Source: a virus
Taxonomy: Duplodnaviria; Heunggongvirae; Uroviricota; Caudoviricetes
IMG/VR virus record: IMGVR_UViG_2541047775_000006
Reading direction: 5' to 3' (one strand)
DNA: 31,163 nt
Shown here: one piece after another, positions 5,414 to 31,163 of the stretch
How positions within the stretch are numbered: the first letter of the stretch is position 1
Layout of the letters: each line of letters starts with the position of its first letter
The notes under the pieces: generated by a model
Database searches by the model: none
The model's input: only the letters and a program-made list of their open reading frames with translations
What the model was told of the DNA's origin: nothing
Made by a program: the position numbers and the translations under genes

Positions 5414-5758
5414 TCAGGCTATTACCTGAAATTCAAGCGTGGCTCTGCTCAGACGGGAGTCAGGATCATACCCCTGCGTTTTAGAAATAACGGAGGGTGC
5501 CAGTTTCCTTACTGCATCAAGCGCCTGCTCACGAATATCATCTGCGTCATCAGGTACTGTCGCCCAGACATCGATCTGCACGGTAATTCTGGATTCAGCC
5601 TGCCCATCAAGCACATCAGATGCCGTGTCAGACACCACAGAAAACACCAGCCACGGCGGAGATACCGCAGGCTTTCCCTCCGTCAGCGGGACCACATAAG
5701 GATAAACCTGTCCTCCGGCCAGCTGAGACAACAGGGAATACAGTGTGCCCTCCCTCAT
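5414..5758 (-). CDS. tail completion/terminator protein (gpU position; my DUF3168 assignment is tentative)
   Basis: 114-aa ORF between head-tail genes and major tail gene; ATGA start/stop overlap with upstream gene. Confidence 0.6.
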   Translation of the reverse strand: MREGTLYSLLSQLAGGQVYPYVVPLTEGKPAVSPPWLVFSVVSDTASDVLDGQAESRITVQIDVWATVPDDADDIREQALDAVRKLAPSVISKTQGYDPDSRLSRATLEFQVIA

Positions 5759-20284: not shown

Positions 20285-21226
20285 TCACCCCCTGAATCCT
20301 TCCGGGATCTGGCTGTAGTCCACGTTGTCGTAACTGGCTTTGAAGTACGGGTCTTCACGTTTTTCTGTGTGCGTGCTGACGGACGGCGATAAGCGCAGGG
20401 AAAGCTCATCCCATTTTTCCCGCAACTTCGACGGGCTGAGCACGTTACGGCACCAGAACGGATCACGGCTGACGCGGCTGTACATCTCGCAGATTTGTTT
20501 GTGAGTACGACCATCCTGCACACACATCAGGCGAATTTCGTTTGCCCATGCTGTCCAGTTCGGTTCTTTGGGACGAACCACCTCGCCGTCACATTCGGCG
20601 GCCTGCTCGTACAGGGCGATGATTTTTTTCCAGAGCCACTGTGCGCAGGTCAAATCATCCTGCGTTCCCCACTGGCGCTTTTTAGGGCTGAATACAACCG
20701 CATCAGGATGGCGAGTTAAAAAATCCTGTTCAGCCGTCTGCGTGTCCGGTTGCAAAGCGTCCGGACGAGAAGGTTTTTTATCTGACGGATCATGTTTTGA
20801 TTTTACTGACGGATCCCCGCCAGATTCTGACGGGTGAAAACACGCTTTTTTGCCAGATTTCGACGCATCAAATTTTGACGGGTCAGATTTTGATGCGTCA
20901 GATTTTGACGGGTCAGAATCTGACAGTTGAGAAAATGCCGCAGCCTGAAGCTTCGCAACGTTAAGCTGATAAACATTCGACGCATTGCGGTTACCCTGGC
21001 GACGCGCCTTACGCGTTAACCAGCCTTCTGCTTCCAGCCGTGCGATAGCCGTTCTGACGGTACTCATCCCCGCGCCAATCTGGCGGGCAATGGTTTCAAT
21101 TGATGGCCAGCACACACCCTCGTCATTACTGAAATCAGCCAGACGGGCCATAATTGCCACACTGGATAATTTCATGCCTGACGCTGCGCAACCATCCCAT
21201 ACATAGCCGGTTAATTTGGTGCTCAC
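20285..21226 (-). CDS. replication initiation protein (O-like, N-terminal HTH) containing origin iterons
   Basis: 313 aa; GTG start with AAGGAGGTG SD, GTGA overlap with rha stop. Central low-complexity linker (SDSDPSKSDASKSDPSKFDASKS) is encoded by tandem DNA repeats. Confidence 0.75.
   Translation of the reverse strand: MSTKLTGYVWDGCAASGMKLSSVAIMARLADFSNDEGVCWPSIETIARQIGAGMSTVRTAIARLEAEGWLTRKARRQGNRNASNVYQLNVAKLQAAAFSQLSDSDPSKSDASKSDPSKFDASKSGKKACFHPSESGGDPSVKSKHDPSDKKPSRPDALQPDTQTAEQDFLTRHPDAVVFSPKKRQWGTQDDLTCAQWLWKKIIALYEQAAECDGEVVRPKEPNWTAWANEIRLMCVQDGRTHKQICEMYSRVSRDPFWCRNVLSPSKLREKWDELSLRLSPSVSTHTEKREDPYFKASYDNVDYSQIPEGFRG
20781..20930. repeat. tandem approx. 15-bp iterons (putative replication origin) inside O-like gene
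   Basis: At least 6 tandem copies of CAGATTTTGACGGGT-like units (20821..20929) plus degenerate ACTGACGGATC copies upstream, next to an AT-rich tract. Analogous to lambda ori inside O. Confidence 0.7.
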
Positions 21227-21768
21227 TTACGCACCTCCTTATGCTTTTCGTTCAGTTCCGAGTCCACCAGCCCGGCAACGAATACACCATCGTTGATGTA
21301 GTCGTAGAGCGATGAAGCCAGCGGAGACTGAACTGAAACCAGCATCGGATAAAGTTGTTCTAACCAAACGCGGTGAATTTCAGCCATGTAGAGGTAAACA
21401 ACGTGGGCATTGTGCGCGACACATGAAGTATCAACCTTTCCGATCAGCGCCTGTTCCATCTGGTTAAAGGCATTGATGTATGCCTCTTTGAACCGGGCTG
21501 CACGTTTGCCAGTAAAGCCCATAGCAAGGAACGCGAAGCCATCGCGGGTGATTTGATAGCAAGGTAGTTTGCGGCCTGTGCAATCGGTGTAATCACTGGG
21601 CTGAAAATTCAGCTCAGTGAATTCAACAGAGCACTCAAGCGTCTGGATTTTTTGAATAACGTTTTTGTGCTGCTTGCAGAAATATTCGGCAACGGCCAAA
21701 GAAGAGGTAACAGCCTTCCCATGGATAACATCAATTTTAGGGTGAGTTTGGGTAGGGGTGGTTGCCAT
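21223..21768 (-). CDS. Rha family phage regulatory protein
   Basis: ATG at 21768 with GAGGATG SD gives MATTPTQTHPKIDVIHGKAVTSSLAVAEYF...ITRDGFAFLAMGFTGKRAARFKEAYINAF. Track ORF extends to 22062 through non-coding repeats. Confidence 0.75.
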   Translation of the reverse strand: MATTPTQTHPKIDVIHGKAVTSSLAVAEYFCKQHKNVIQKIQTLECSVEFTELNFQPSDYTDCTGRKLPCYQITRDGFAFLAMGFTGKRAARFKEAYINAFNQMEQALIGKVDTSCVAHNAHVVYLYMAEIHRVWLEQLYPMLVSVQSPLASSLYDYINDGVFVAGLVDSELNEKHKEVRK

Positions 21769-21930
21769 AGTGACATCCTCATGTGCGAATTTTGAAAACT
21801 CACCACATGGGACGCCAATCACAGAGGTGGTGAGACGTACAGGGTTGGCGTAACCGGTCGCACATGACCCCGGCGCATCTTTCGATGCCCCTGCACGCCC
21901 CACCATAATTTGGATGTGAGGAAACGTGCG

Positions 21931-21954
21931 CAAAAAAACCGCTGAAGCGCGGTT
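21931..21954 (-). terminator. terminator-like hairpin (tR1-like) upstream of rha
   Basis: Plus-strand aaaaaaAACCGCtgaagcGCGGTT; on the minus strand a stem then 7 U, about 85 nt downstream of the DUF4222 gene stop. Confidence 0.45.
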
Positions 21955-22039
21955 ATGCGCATGTGCGAATTTCAGGACGCCAATCCCGGCACCCGCTTTA
22001 TAAGGTGCCTGAACAGTGTAACGTCCCGGAATGGCAGAA

Positions 22040-22231
22040 TCAATCATTACTGGTTTGCTCATGATCGTCCCTTATCTCCCTGAACTTTTGCCTGAAATGC
22101 TCAAGTGGGCTGAAGCATTCATGTTCATAGCCTTCACGGAGGTAGATAACCCGTTGTGTTTCCGGCTCCCAACGAATGACTCTGACGGGCACTCCGTGGT
22201 GATCTTTGAACCAGCGGTTAACTTGTCGCAA
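22040..22231 (-). CDS. small hypothetical protein (DUF4222-like)
   Basis: 63 aa [40 protein letters not shown]...; TTG start at 22231 preceded by AAGGAGA at optimal spacing. A paralogue sits at 29157..29399. Confidence 0.6.
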
Positions 22232-23326: not shown

Positions 23327-23953
23327 ATGGAAACGGTTGGTCAGCGTATAAAAGCTCTGAGAAGAGTTACCAGAACGTCCCAGAAAGAATTGGGTAAATT
23401 TTGTGGAGTAAGTGACGTTGCTGTGGGGTACTGGGAGAAAGACATCAATGTCCCTGGTGGGGAAGCACTTTCAAAATTAGCGAAGTTCTTCAATACGTCA
23501 ATAGATTACATTCTTTATGGTGCGGAGTTTGAAGGCAAACTCGTCACAAACATGCGCAGAGTTCCTGTAATCTCGTGGGTTCAGGCTGGGCAGTTTACTG
23601 AGTGCAGGACAGCAGAAGTGTTTAGTGAAGTAGACAAGTGGGTAGATACATCATTAAAGATTGGTGATAACTCATTTGCATTGGAGGTTAAAGGCGACTC
23701 CATGACTAACCCTAACGGCCTCCCAACAATACCAGAAGGCGCAACAGTGATTGTAGATCCTGATGCAGAACCCCGGCATGGAAAAATAGTCATCGCTAGA
23801 CTTGATGGAACAAACGAAGCCACAGTAAAAAAATTAGTTATCGATGGCCCTCAAAAGTTTTTAGTGCCATTAAATCCCCGGTACCCCAACATCCCGATCA
23901 ATGGTAATTGCCTCATCATTGGTGTAGTCAAAGGAGTTCAATACGAACTCTAG
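23327..23953 (+). CDS. cI: CI-like repressor (HTH_XRE plus S24 LexA-like peptidase)
   Basis: 208 aa; N-terminal HTH (QKELGKFCGVSDVAVGYWEKD), C-terminal peptidase with Ser in GDSM and Lys in VKKL; GGTGCTCCT ATG. Confidence 0.9.
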   Translation: METVGQRIKALRRVTRTSQKELGKFCGVSDVAVGYWEKDINVPGGEALSKLAKFFNTSIDYILYGAEFEGKLVTNMRRVPVISWVQAGQFTECRTAEVFSEVDKWVDTSLKIGDNSFALEVKGDSMTNPNGLPTIPEGATVIVDPDAEPRHGKIVIARLDGTNEATVKKLVIDGPQKFLVPLNPRYPNIPINGNCLIIGVVKGVQYEL

Positions 23954-27456: not shown

Positions 27457-27688
27457 ACAGAACGAAAAATCTATCGCTCAAATTGCTGAGTATATCCCGC
27501 GTGCGTGCCGGGATATGCAGTTGCAGGAAGCCAAAGCACGCCTGGAGAAAAAAATTGCGCTCTATATCGATGACGGCTGTGATGCCGCCGTTCTTAACGC
27601 GGCGTTCGCGCCAGCTCTTAACAGTCATACGCGAAAGTCTTTTTTTTCGTGCATCGCAGCGCAGATCCGTAAAGGAGGCAACCAGTGA
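27449..27688 (+). CDS. hypothetical small protein
   Basis: 79-aa ORF, start overlaps upstream stop. Confidence 0.5.
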   Translation: MFKQNEKSIAQIAEYIPRACRDMQLQEAKARLEKKIALYIDDGCDAAVLNAAFAPALNSHTRKSFFSCIAAQIRKGGNQ

Positions 27689-28284
27689 GCAACATTAACT
27701 ATCAGGTACTGCGTGAAAAGGCAGAGAAAGCAACTAAAGGAAGCTACATCGTAGGGCATACATCTGTTAACCAACACGGCAATTTAACAGGAGTTTTTGT
27801 TTGTCAAAAATGGAAAGGAGAACCCGGTGGCGTAATTGCAGAATGTCACGTTAACTGCCTGGTTGAAACAGATGCTCAGGCTTATGCAAACGCTGAATTC
27901 ATAGCAGAGGCTAACCCGGCTACCGTGCTGGCACTGCTGGATGAACAGGAAAGAAACCAGCAATACATCAAACGCCGCGACCAGGAGAACGAGGATATTG
28001 CGCTAACGGTAGGGAAGCTGCGCGTTGAGCTTGAGGAGACAAAATCAAAACTCAACGAGCAGCGCGAGTATTACGAGGGAGTTATCTCTGATGGGTGCAA
28101 GCGTATTGCTGAACTGGAAGCGCGGGAAGTTCAATTACCGACTCGCTACGACCTTCGATATGGACACCCGATAAATGCAGATGAGCGACAAGTCATGATA
28201 CCTAAAGAAAATGGCAGTTGGCTTTACCTGATTGACCTAGAACACGCATTACGCGTCGCTGACATTCGTATCAAAGGAGAGTGA
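27685..28284 (+). CDS. Ead/Ea22-like protein
   Basis: 199 aa, GTG start with AAAGGAGG SD; N-terminus MSNINYQVLREKAEKATKGSY and central coiled coil typical of Ea22-like proteins. Confidence 0.6.
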   Translation: MSNINYQVLREKAEKATKGSYIVGHTSVNQHGNLTGVFVCQKWKGEPGGVIAECHVNCLVETDAQAYANAEFIAEANPATVLALLDEQERNQQYIKRRDQENEDIALTVGKLRVELEETKSKLNEQREYYEGVISDGCKRIAELEAREVQLPTRYDLRYGHPINADERQVMIPKENGSWLYLIDLEHALRVADIRIKGE

Positions 28285-28559: not shown

Positions 28560-29072
28560 ATGACCACTATAACCAAAGAGCGACTGCTGACAATCAAGCA
28601 GTGGCGCGAAACATACGGACCGGGTAGCAACGTTGTGCTTCCAGCAGAAGAAGCGGAAGAGCTGGCACGGATTGCGCTGGCATCACTGGCAGCAGAGCCG
28701 GTGGCAAAGATTATAGCTCATTACCCATTAGGAGTTGACGTAGGCAAACAAAAATTCGTACAGGCCATTAGAGAGCTTCCTGACTTTGGCGGATATCTAT
28801 TTGCCGCCCCTCCAGCGCCGATAGTGCCGGAAGAAATGTATTGGCAGGATGCGCCAGTTGAAGGCAGCAGCAAAGCGGCTGCATACGCTACAGGCTGGAA
28901 CGATTGCCGCGAAGCCATGCTTCAGTCCGGAAACTTTCGGGAAAATAAAGATTCGTCAACCAATAATTTTCGGAAAATCCCGGAAGCGTCAACCAGCTCT
29001 CCGGTAACTCCGGATGGTTGGATAAGCTGTAGTGAGCGAATGCCGGACGACAGGCAGGAGGTGAATCAATGA
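28560..29072 (+). CDS. hypothetical protein with DUF551-like C-terminal fragment
   Basis: 170 aa, TAAGGAG SD; C-terminal DGWISCSERMPDD resembles the start of a DUF551 domain but ends shortly after. Confidence 0.5.
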   Translation: MTTITKERLLTIKQWRETYGPGSNVVLPAEEAEELARIALASLAAEPVAKIIAHYPLGVDVGKQKFVQAIRELPDFGGYLFAAPPAPIVPEEMYWQDAPVEGSSKAAAYATGWNDCREAMLQSGNFRENKDSSTNNFRKIPEASTSSPVTPDGWISCSERMPDDRQEVNQ

Positions 29073-29152
29073 GCTGGCCTGATGCAATCGTAACTCTGGG
29101 GGTGGTATTCGCAGCAGCGTTTGTTGTGTTCTCGATTTGTCGATGGGGATAA
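29069..29152 (+). CDS. 27-aa hydrophobic peptide (unannotated small ORF)
   Basis: ATG 29069 forms ATGA with upstream stop, preceded by GGAGGTG at ideal spacing; MSWPDAIVTLGVVFAAAFVVFSICRWG, one predicted TM helix. Confidence 0.45.
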   Translation: MSWPDAIVTLGVVFAAAFVVFSICRWG

Positions 29153-29156
29153 CCAC

Positions 29157-29399
29157 ATGTTCGCTTTGATTCAACGCGGTCAGATATACACGGACAGAGC
29201 TGGATACCCCGTGGTGATTACTCGCATCACTGAGCACTCAGTGTTCTTTCGACGGATGGACGGACGATCCGGGCGGGTACGCATTGGTGAGTTAAACTGC
29301 CTGTTCGAACATATTGACCACCAGGAGTACCGCAAAATTCTCGCGGACACTGAGCAGGAAAAGCACCTGAAAAAATTACGAGCCATAAAAAGGAAGTAA
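29157..29399 (+). CDS. small hypothetical protein (DUF4222-like paralogue)
   Basis: ATG at 29157 (MFALIQRGQIYTDRAGYPVVITRITEHSVFFRRMDGRSGRVRIGELNCLFEHID...); track start 29121 is further upstream. Confidence 0.55.
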   Translation: MFALIQRGQIYTDRAGYPVVITRITEHSVFFRRMDGRSGRVRIGELNCLFEHIDHQEYRKILADTEQEKHLKKLRAIKRK

Positions 29400-29402
29400 A
29401 GA

Positions 29403-29549
29403 ATGAATAAAGCATTTGAACGATGGGTCCACCAGCGTTACGGCAATCGCTATGACCTGACGCGAGATGTTGACGGCTTCTACTGTCGTGAAGTTGTGAA
29501 GCGAATGTTTGAAGTGTGTTGCCACTGCCGTGGGCTGAGTGTTGTGTGA
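29403..29549 (+). CDS. 48-aa Cys-rich small protein (unannotated small ORF)
   Basis: ATG 29403 with AGGAAG SD; MNKAFERWVHQRYGNRYDLTRDVDGFYCREVVKRMFEVCCHCRGLSVV. Confidence 0.4.
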   Translation: MNKAFERWVHQRYGNRYDLTRDVDGFYCREVVKRMFEVCCHCRGLSVV

Positions 29550-29557
29550 GGTAATAC

Positions 29558-29794
29558 ATGGGCAATGTGATTCAACTGGCTCCCAATGAATGGGTTTGTG
29601 AAAGCGTTCTTATCGCAATTACCGGGCTCAAACCAGGCACAATTCTTCGGGCCCGGAAAGAATGCTGGATGGTTGGAAGAGAGTATATTCACGTATCACC
29701 AGACGGTAATCCAAAGCCTTCCAGTGAATGTATGTATAACAGAAAAGCAATAGATGCCTGGGTCGCCTCAATGAAAAACAAACAACCTAGGTGA
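29558..29794 (+). CDS. xis: excisionase (Xis-like winged-helix)
   Basis: 78-aa ORF immediately upstream of the integrase; motif ITGLKPGTILRARKE...REYIHVSPDG. Confidence 0.7.
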   Translation: MGNVIQLAPNEWVCESVLIAITGLKPGTILRARKECWMVGREYIHVSPDGNPKPSSECMYNRKAIDAWVASMKNKQPR

Positions 29795-29849: not shown

Positions 29850-31163
29850 ATGGATAAAGTCAAATATCCAACAGGCGTCGAAAACCACGGCGGCACATTA
29901 CGCATCTGGTTTAATTTTAAAGGTAAACGTGTCAGGGAAAATCTTGGTGTCCCTGACACTGCCAAGAACAGGAAGATCGCCGGGGAACTGCGGACATCAG
30001 TATGTTTTGCCATCCGCACAGGAAGCTTTGATTATGCTGCACAGTTCCCTGACTCCCCCAACCTTCAGGCTTTTGGGGTAAGTAAAAAAGAAATTACGGT
30101 GAAGGAACTTGAAGAAAAGTGGCTGGATCTGAAACGAATGGAAATCTCTGCAAATGCATTCAATCGCTATGAATCCGTTGCAAGAACGATGGTTCCGAAA
30201 ATTGGAGGCAGTAGACTGGTGTCATCGGTAACCAAAGAGGAATTGCTGTATATCAGGAAAGATTTGCTGACCGGGTATCAGAATTCAACGAAAAACAAAG
30301 CAGCAGCAAAAGGACGGAGCGTCGTTACTGTAAATTATTACATGACGACAATCGCTGGAATGTTTCAGTTTGCTGCAGATCACGGTTACTTAGAAGCAAA
30401 TCCCTTCCAGGGAATTAAGCCTCTTAAAAGAGCCAGGGCAGAGCCAGATCCGCTAACTCGTGACGAATTTATTCGCCTGATAGATGCTTGCCGACATCAG
30501 CAGACGAAAAACCTGTGGTCATTGGCTGTGTACACAGGAATGCGTCACGGTGAACTGGTCTCCCTGGCCTGGGAAGATATCGATCTGAAGGCAGGAACAA
30601 TTACCATCAGGCGCAATTATACGAAACTTGGTGAGTTCACTCTACCGAAAACTGAAGCAAGCACAAACAGGGTTGTGCACCTTATCCAGCCCGCTATCAG
30701 TGTCCTGAAAAATCAGGCTGAAATGACAAGACTGGGTAAGCAGTACAACATCAAGGTGCAACTACGTGAATATGGACGTTCAGTGAACCATGAATGTACT
30801 TTCGTGTTTAACCCTCAAGTGGTTAGAAAAAGCGAACAGGTAGGTTTTGTCTACAAAGTCGATTCTGTAGGTGACTCATGGGAAACAGCCATTAAGCGTG
30901 CAGGGATCAGGCATCGAAAGGCATACCAGTCACGACACACTTATGCGTGCTGGTCATTATCTGCCGGAGCAAACCCAAGCTTCATTGCCAGCCAGATGGG
31001 CCATGCAAGTGCCCAGATGGTATTCAATGTATACGGAGCATGGATGACTGACAGCAATGCAGAACAGATCGCAATGCTGAATCAGAAGCTGACAGATTAT
31101 GTCCCAATGATGCCCCATAGTCACCAAAGTGACACCAGAGGCTTATTAAAATCAGTAAGTTAA
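29850..31163 (+). CDS. int: tyrosine integrase (lambda Int family)
   Basis: 437 aa, GGAGG SD; catalytic signature residues visible (R in YTGMRHGEL, SRHTYA box, Tyr in NVYGAW). Stop codon is the last 3 nt of the window. Confidence 0.9.
   Translation: MDKVKYPTGVENHGGTLRIWFNFKGKRVRENLGVPDTAKNRKIAGELRTSVCFAIRTGSFDYAAQFPDSPNLQAFGVSKKEITVKELEEKWLDLKRMEISANAFNRYESVARTMVPKIGGSRLVSSVTKEELLYIRKDLLTGYQNSTKNKAAAKGRSVVTVNYYMTTIAGMFQFAADHGYLEANPFQGIKPLKRARAEPDPLTRDEFIRLIDACRHQQTKNLWSLAVYTGMRHGELVSLAWEDIDLKAGTITIRRNYTKLGEFTLPKTEASTNRVVHLIQPAISVLKNQAEMTRLGKQYNIKVQLREYGRSVNHECTFVFNPQVVRKSEQVGFVYKVDSVGDSWETAIKRAGIRHRKAYQSRHTYACWSLSAGANPSFIASQMGHASAQMVFNVYGAWMTDSNAEQIAMLNQKLTDYVPMMPHSHQSDTRGLLKSVS

Follow-up and report, generated by a model that had tools for sequence, protein, structure and literature searches.

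A conserved 27-codon gene, probably encoding a membrane peptide, near the distal end of the leftward early operon of an Escherichia coli lambdoid prophage

Does the interval 29069-29549 of the viral record IMGVR_UViG_2541047775_000006, a stretch of 31,163 nucleotides (nt) referred to here as the window, encode small proteins that annotation has overlooked, and what could such proteins do? The window is an E. coli lambdoid prophage, and an initial annotation made from its sequence had pointed to two small open reading frames (ORFs) in this interval, one of 27 and one of 48 codons. Taken alone, a 27-codon ORF means nothing, as 61 ORFs of at least 20 amino acids (aa) overlap the same 3 kb; its significance has to come from conservation. 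Judged in this way, the 27-codon ORF, from here on the micro-gene, is very probably a genuine protein-coding gene, and the interval consists of three tightly packed genes, namely the micro-gene, a DUF4222 gene and the 48-codon ORF. The best explanation as a whole, to which we assign a probability of roughly 0.6, is that these are the last genes of a leftward early operon before xis and int, with the micro-gene encoding a membrane peptide that may bind a partner and the 48-codon ORF a soluble protein that may be tied to excision.

The conservation of the micro-gene was evaluated in two samples that were chosen independently of its own sequence. Among 80 IMG/VR loci picked by a DUF4222 neighbour only, 79 carry the intact ORF, the exception being due to a 1-nt insertion in a G run. 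In a set of 84 loci selected solely through the final 7 codons of the gene upstream, 77 of the 79 family copies are intact; the other two are disrupted by a nonsense mutation and by loss of the stop, respectively. The initial annotation had named the loss of the frame in homologous phages as the finding that would speak against a gene; when checked in these samples, the frame was kept. Across all loci gathered, 57 distinct nucleotide alleles are present, which differ at up to 32 of 78 sites, and the 40 distinct amino-acid alleles are each exactly 27 residues long. In particular, around 30% of the nucleotides differ in the copy of phage PhiR49_2, yet start, stop, length and both ends of the peptide are kept. 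In parallel, the pattern of substitution is that of a coding sequence under purifying selection: the pooled ratio of non-synonymous to synonymous polymorphism (pN/pS) is about 0.32 in the upstream-picked sample, and four comparisons among four divergent alleles, which are mutually non-independent, give values of 0.32-0.43 (Fisher p 2e-4 to 1e-2). Entropy is concentrated at the third codon position (0.85, against 0.38 at the first and 0.28 at the second), and the residues W3, P4, A6, G11, A15, I23, C24, R25 and W26 are conserved beyond any constraint imposed by the searches. Shuffled sequence folds as well as the RNA of the micro-gene does (z = +1.5), and no Rfam family is found in 29000-29600. 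Thus, the ORF can be taken as a real gene because its frame, length and start signals are kept across diverged homologues, together with purifying selection and no structured RNA.

The start signals deserve a closer description. The ATG of the micro-gene (29069-29071) overlaps the TGA stop (29070-29072) of a 170-aa upstream gene to form an ATGA, and the seven bases AGGAGGT, a Shine-Dalgarno (SD) sequence, stop 6 nt 5' of the ATG, so that the strong SD and the ATGA overlap described in the initial annotation are borne out. Both the SD and the overlapping stop are held by the last codons of the upstream gene, R-Q-E-V-N-Q-stop, and a C-terminal ending PPQEVNQ-stop or RQEVNQ-stop precedes the micro-gene at many loci. 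An SD-like purine run (GGAGG, AAGGTG, AAGGGGA) is present in every upstream context examined and the ATGA overlap at every locus examined, where the annotated upstream gene always ends exactly 4 nt into the ORF. These elements are kept although the upstream proteins are unrelated in overall architecture, with three types or more, and what lies downstream differs between loci (DUF4222, hok/sok, a toxin-antitoxin pair, an inverted KilA-N gene or nothing). The constant partner of the micro-gene is the 3' end of the preceding gene, with its SD and overlapping stop, and the upstream proteins end in the DUF551-type sequence ...W-M-P-L-P-E-P-P-Q-E-V-N-Q or in ...R-N-G-L-I-S-V-E-D-I-L-R. On the other side, 4 nt separate the stop of the micro-gene from the DUF4222 start in the window, and an SD-like GGGGA lies within the last codons of the micro-gene. 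No sigma-70-like promoter was found on the + strand close upstream of either small ORF.

The encoded peptide follows the consensus M-[STN]-W-P-[ED]-A-[FIL]-x-x-x-G-x-[AV]-x-A-x-A-[LF]-x-V-[YF]-S-I-C-R-W-G. Its short ends (W3, P4 and A6; I23, C24, R25 and W26) are near-invariant, as are the small residues G11, A15 and A17, and the rest of the core is variable, yet always hydrophobic. Over residues 6-24, the Kyte-Doolittle mean is 1.7-2.8 and the summed Hessa-scale value ranges from about -2.6 to +1.0 for most alleles, values that agree with the earlier description of the product as essentially one hydrophobic helix. Having no more than 50 residues and one hydrophobic segment of sufficient length to span a membrane, the peptide falls within the generic definition of a small single-pass membrane protein. 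On these features of its sequence, the 27-residue product is probably a membrane peptide.

How could such a peptide be produced and act? The AGGAGGT and the universal ATGA suggest that the micro-gene is translated by termination-reinitiation, coupled to whichever Ea22/EaA/DUF551-type gene precedes it. If so, coupled translation would imply that the micro-gene is expressed only while pL-type early transcription runs, that is, post infection or upon induction. The hydrophobicity of the peptide is consistent with its insertion in the inner membrane as a single helix. An N-out/C-in topology is predicted by the positive-inside rule, given that the only acidic residue (D/E5) is close to the N terminus and the only arginine (R25) close to the C terminus; the acidic M-x-W-P-D/E-A end would then be periplasmic and the S-I-C-R-W-G end cytoplasmic. 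Through these strongly conserved juxtamembrane ends, the peptide might bind and modulate a membrane protein. A precedent is offered by KdpF (29 aa), AcrZ, MgtS and CydX, which like the micro-gene peptide have fewer than 50 residues and one hydrophobic helix, and which annotation often misses. These proteins are often translationally linked to a partner gene and act by binding a larger membrane protein. The micro-gene has no sequence relationship to any of them and differs in being phage-borne in an early-left operon. By analogy, action through partner binding rather than as a toxin is put forward as a tentative proposal, at clearly less than even odds; non-specific membrane damage is less likely.

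A separate question is why the micro-gene has escaped notice, and how widespread it is. Both small ORFs had been described as unannotated, which holds for the 27-codon ORF in RefSeq and its Prokaryotic Genome Annotation Pipeline (PGAP) but not for the 48-codon ORF, which is present as WP_001030156.1 and PHROG 3871. Indeed, the micro-gene is left out in RefSeq and in all fifteen annotated records examined, each of which leaves 84 nt unassigned after the upstream gene, and a few GenBank submissions annotate it as 'hypothetical/bacteriophage protein' (AOM45384.1, EIL24003.1). The peptide has no match among the Pfam, PHROG (E <= 1), NCBIfam or PADLOC models, toxin families included. The KdpF model TIGR02115 gives 14.7 bits (E = 0.024) with the best allele, which is sub-threshold at a cut-off of 26.85, and the window's own allele has no match to it. 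The 27-residue peptide is a new family among small single-pass membrane proteins and the small accessory genes of phage early operons. A concatenate of four alleles retrieved only seven longer proteins, and these were rejected as natural domain fusions, all of them being accidental fusions that arose by deletions, frameshifts or stop loss. A 90% cluster that holds one allele and is headed by an unrelated 121-aa DUF551 protein was likewise set aside as a clustering artefact. In protein P0145 (ENA contigs; allele MNWPEAFAITGVAM...), a stop-loss fusion reveals a second small hydrophobic ORF after the micro-gene, MSDDISLAMEGALAVIVVVGVYCLVVLLMDRLGS, which by its sequence may be another unannotated membrane micro-gene.

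By tblastn and blastn, copies of the micro-gene are found in 933W, VT2-Sakai, Min27, BP-4795, YYZ-2008, ArgO145, phages carrying Shiga toxin 1 (Stx1), a P1-like phage and others, and the O104:H4 prophages also carry it. Searched by blastn with a 90-nt query, whose sensitivity makes the count a lower bound, 391 or more of 5426 complete E. coli genomes (at least 7%) contain a copy. When one genome per species was scanned for a strict motif, a procedure that may miss remoter relatives, only Escherichia and Shigella were retrieved, besides two contigs of less than 450 bp assigned to Xanthomonas and Acinetobacter (L019 and L022), which are probably contamination. An E. coli-type allele with hok-like neighbours is also present in the Actinobacillus phage vB_Apl-pPE4 (L015), whose host label looks doubtful unless the record reflects contamination by an E. 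coli phage. No copy was found in the 13-kb Rac region of K-12. The unit also occurs outside the exo-xis region, namely beside replication genes in vB_EcoS-613R10 and on P1-like plasmids.

These occurrences define why the micro-gene matters. It is present in medically important prophages (933W, VT2-Sakai, BP-4795 and that of the O104:H4 outbreak strain) and yet missing from RefSeq and from the family libraries searched. Moreover, its place is in the exo-xis region, whose influence on the induction of Stx prophages is established but which is only partly understood, and deletion studies of this region or of 'ea22'/DUF551 genes may have unknowingly removed or de-coupled the peptide. The finding is of moderate interest: the micro-gene is securely called and bears on Shiga-toxin phages, but small membrane proteins that annotation has missed are now being found in large numbers. 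The lambda and Stx-phage exo-xis proteins orf60a, orf61, orf63, Ea8.5 and Ea22 (PMC10834534) share with the genes described here the same region, early pL-driven expression, mosaicism and, for the most part, the lack of functional characterisation. The upstream partner in the window is of the Ea22/DUF551 type, as in exo-xis, and neither small ORF is a named exo-xis gene. In the Ea22 structure paper (PMC10834534) the terms 'transmembrane' and 'small ORF' are absent, and the other exo-xis papers that were term-searched describe no such membrane peptide.

The 48-codon ORF receives a different answer. It translates to MNKAFERWVHQRYGNRYDLTRDVDGFYCREVVKRMFEVCCHCRGLSVV, is preceded by AAGGAAG, begins 3 nt past the DUF4222 stop and ends 8 nt ahead of xis; operon-style packing with SD sequences, proposed earlier for both ORFs, is confirmed in each case. 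The protein matches PHROG 3871, a family of the same size, over its full length (residues 1-48 on profile positions 1-48, E = 7.5e-33). Members are annotated 'hypothetical/bacteriophage protein' throughout Enterobacteriaceae, and 104 relatives, all unnamed, were collected from Escherichia, Shigella, Salmonella, Citrobacter, Klebsiella, Enterobacter, Cronobacter and Pantoea. The alignment of 38 members has an invariant core, Y17 D18 L19 ... Y27 x R29 E30 x V32 x R34 M35, within the motif R-Y-D-L-x-x-D ... G-x-Y-x-R-E-V-V-K-R-M-F-E-x-W. AlphaFold2 predicts helices at residues 3-13 and 29-42 with a mean predicted local distance difference test (pLDDT) score of 81, a model in which the protein would be a soluble helix/short-hairpin/helix.

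The position of this gene is its most informative feature. In Escherichia, Salmonella, Klebsiella and Pantoea, the gene immediately downstream is of the excisionase type while the upstream neighbour changes, and these excisionase-type genes belong to at least three Pfam families, DUF1233, Exc (PF07825) and PrtN (PF11112). The conserved position before xis leads to the suggestion that the 48-aa protein acts with the excision module or tunes its expression, and such a functional tie may be considered possible, although the odds are against it. The family is already catalogued and functionally unnamed; its strict position before excisionase-type genes is the useful new point. In PhiR12_1 (L003, PV340549.1), a 69-aa ORF at about 2005-2214, MGLDCVPISTYCRDAGETVDAVNKRIQRGIWKEG..., directly follows the 48-aa gene; it is unannotated in GenBank, has no Pfam match and is assumed to be Xis-like from its position only.

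The initial annotation had also suggested that the 48-aa protein binds metal through a Cys-rich cluster. The copy in the window does contain four Cys and one His among its 48 residues, and the string CCHC is real, so that a small zinc or metal binder operating through C28 and the CCHC residues can be envisaged. However, the first C of the string is unusual, as W occupies position 39 in 35 of 37 homologues and the window carries an uncommon W39C. The other positions are not retained either: position 28 can also be Y, S, F or A, position 40 R or Y, position 41 Y or E, and position 42 L, R or F. All Cys and His columns of the 38-sequence alignment vary, none of them even approaching invariance, and the protein has no match to a zinc-finger family. 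A conserved metal binder is not supported by these data, and metal binding is highly improbable.

Several points count against the overall interpretation and have to be weighed with it. Some of the pooled loci were retrieved by a pattern in which parts of the ORF are preset, and the independent samples were relied on instead. Over 26 codons, pN/pS is noisy, and recombination between alleles blurs the pairwise comparison. In the window, the C-terminal codons of the micro-gene also provide the SD of the DUF4222 gene; the C-terminal motif is nonetheless kept where no gene follows, and thus it is not conserved merely as an SD. With regard to the membrane helix, summed Hessa values are slightly above 0 in several alleles, and the conservation along the helix has no clear 100-degree periodicity and hence gives no direct sign of a packing face. 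A literature search on the peptide sequences, the neighbouring families (DUF551/DUF4222) and the exo-xis papers returned nothing on either ORF, and the supplements of the Sakai ribosome-profiling (Ribo-seq) small-gene paper hold no matching peptide string. As to the 48-aa protein, fold searches gave no significant match, and its link to excision is drawn from gene order alone.

Among the alternatives, and in line with the host killing or division inhibition considered in the initial annotation, the peptide could be a membrane-damaging toxin or division inhibitor, similar to Kil or to the type I toxins TisB, DinQ and Hok, that aids early lytic host shutdown. Its size, hydrophobicity and single helix resemble those of type I toxins (TisB, DinQ, Hok/Gef), it lies in the early-left operon, as kil does in lambda, and in 933W and a related record hok/sok is found about 150 nt downstream of the micro-gene, which shows that small toxic peptides are encoded in this neighbourhood. 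Type I toxins differ, however, in that no antisense RNA, own promoter or structured leader was found for the micro-gene, which is instead embedded in a long operon and translationally coupled through the ATGA overlap. Lambda Kil and Rac KilR are likewise small early-left products of lambdoid phages, but they are soluble FtsZ inhibitors and not transmembrane peptides; the micro-gene peptide shows no homology to them (no Pfam or PHROG match at E <= 1), and Rac kilR is placed elsewhere in the operon. The failure of the Pfam, PHROG, NCBIfam and PADLOC models to recognise the peptide extends to their toxin families, and the conservation of the short polar ends above that of the hydrophobic core suggests specific recognition more than bulk membrane insertion. 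We consider a toxin unlikely and retain the partner-binding membrane peptide as the preferred reading.

It could also be that only the act of translation matters, either by carrying ribosomes over to the next gene or by preventing Rho-dependent polarity, and that the peptide is functionless. The ATGA upstream, the 4-nt distance to the DUF4222 start and the SD-like GGGGA are all what such a role would use, but the peptide sequence itself shows purifying selection (pN/pS 0.32), the length of 27 codons is invariant, and the ORF and its C-terminal motif are kept in 933W, ArgO145 and vB_EcoS-613R10, where no co-directional gene comes after; a functionless peptide is very unlikely. Least credible, and already largely refuted, is a chance ORF whose conservation is due to a recombination linker, a structured RNA or an antisense ORF of 82 codons (28989-29237). 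The edges of the ORF do fall on mosaic junctions, and one antisense frame is open in 56 of the 57 alleles with the same wobble positions as the sense frame. This antisense frame lacks a conserved start or length, varying from 47 to 230 codons by context, and its openness is attributed to codon composition; the absence of folding beyond shuffled sequence speaks against a structured RNA, and start, stop, 27 codons, SD and hydrophobic helix have survived the roughly 30% nucleotide divergence mentioned above. Beyond these alternatives, a further reading can be imagined, in which the micro-gene would form a mobile two-gene cassette with the 3' portion of whichever Ea22/EaA/DUF551-type gene precedes it, a unit found in exo-xis regions, a nin-type region and P1-like phage-plasmids. 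The peptide would be the membrane partner of the soluble upstream protein, as an anchor, sensor or toxin-like effector, and the two would make up a hitherto unrecognised module with an influence on superinfection or on the choice between lysis and lysogeny in Shiga-toxin phages. This reading is speculative and rather improbable.

The setting of the three genes is consistent with the operon proposed for them, whose features are collected in Table 1. Chromosomal prophages in several E. coli strains match the 1.4 kb around both small ORFs at 100% identity, and the equivalent prophage of O104:H4 outbreak strains does so at 92-98%. At the identical chromosomal locus, the RefSeq gene order is rdgC, yfdR, several small 'ea' genes, Ea22-like, DUF551, DUF4222, the 48-aa hypothetical, excisionase and integrase; the integrase abuts yecE, and xis and int form the distal end of the operon. 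With the CI-like gene on the + strand and a CII-like one on the - strand, the + strand from about 23.3 kb to the window end can be read as a leftward, pL-type early operon, and the label 'early-left operon' given by the initial annotation is a reasonable one.

Table 1. Features of the leftward early operon around the two small ORFs (positions in the window)
Feature	Position	Strand	Basis or remark
CI-like repressor (helix-turn-helix + S24 peptidase)	23327-23953	+	pL-operon marker
Upstream partner gene, 170 aa, Ea22/EaA/DUF551 type	28560..29072	+	DUF551 profile positions 1-16 of 68; phrog_60
Shine-Dalgarno AGGAGGT of the micro-gene	29056..29062	+	sequence reading
27-codon micro-gene, predicted single-pass membrane peptide MSWPDAIVTLGVVFAAAFVVFSICRWG	29069..29152	+	conservation, pN/pS
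DUF4222 gene, 80 aa, WP_000457723.1	29157..29399	+	PF13973 E = 8e-14; phrog_285
48-aa predicted soluble protein, PHROG 3871, WP_001030156.1	29403..29549	+	directly upstream of xis
Excisionase, DUF1233 family	29558..29794	+	PF06806 E = 9.5e-33
Tyrosine integrase	29850..31163	+	distal operon end; 3' end overlaps yecE in identical chromosome locus

The neighbours of the micro-gene have features of their own. The DUF4222 gene passes the gathering threshold of PF13973 (51.3 bits, cut-off 27), and its equivalence to RcbA (Rac YdaC) was considered and rejected, K-12 RcbA being a DUF1187 protein (PF06688). In the 170-aa upstream gene, the DUF551 domain is almost wholly deleted, with 16 of 68 profile positions left, while the terminal codons and the coupling signal are retained. 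The internal deletion fuses W-I-S-C-S-E-R-M-P-D-D to R-Q-E-V-N-Q, and this truncated DUF551 allele is the commonest form beside DUF4222 (56 of 80 loci). Further upstream, at 27685-28284, RefSeq calls the Ead/Ea22-like gene a partial pseudogene (27685-28119); in the window, a GTG-initiated ORF of 199 codons is open over 27685-28284 and has a full Ead_Ea22 Pfam match.

At the distal end, the 3' end of the integrase gene overlaps the start of yecE by 19 nt (5646-5664 in locus L001; about 31145-31163 in the window), and the prophage seems to rebuild the 5' end of yecE, the attachment site of phage phiP27. On the - strand, matches to the C4 antisense RNA and isrK at 21823-22008 lie immediately upstream of an Ash/Rha-type antirepressor-like ORF (21223-22062), and by sequence this region resembles a secondary immunity module of the P1/P7 or Gifsy type within a lambdoid prophage. 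Also on the - strand, a match to the small RNA STnc100 (14714-15239, 140 bits) adjoins three tRNA genes.

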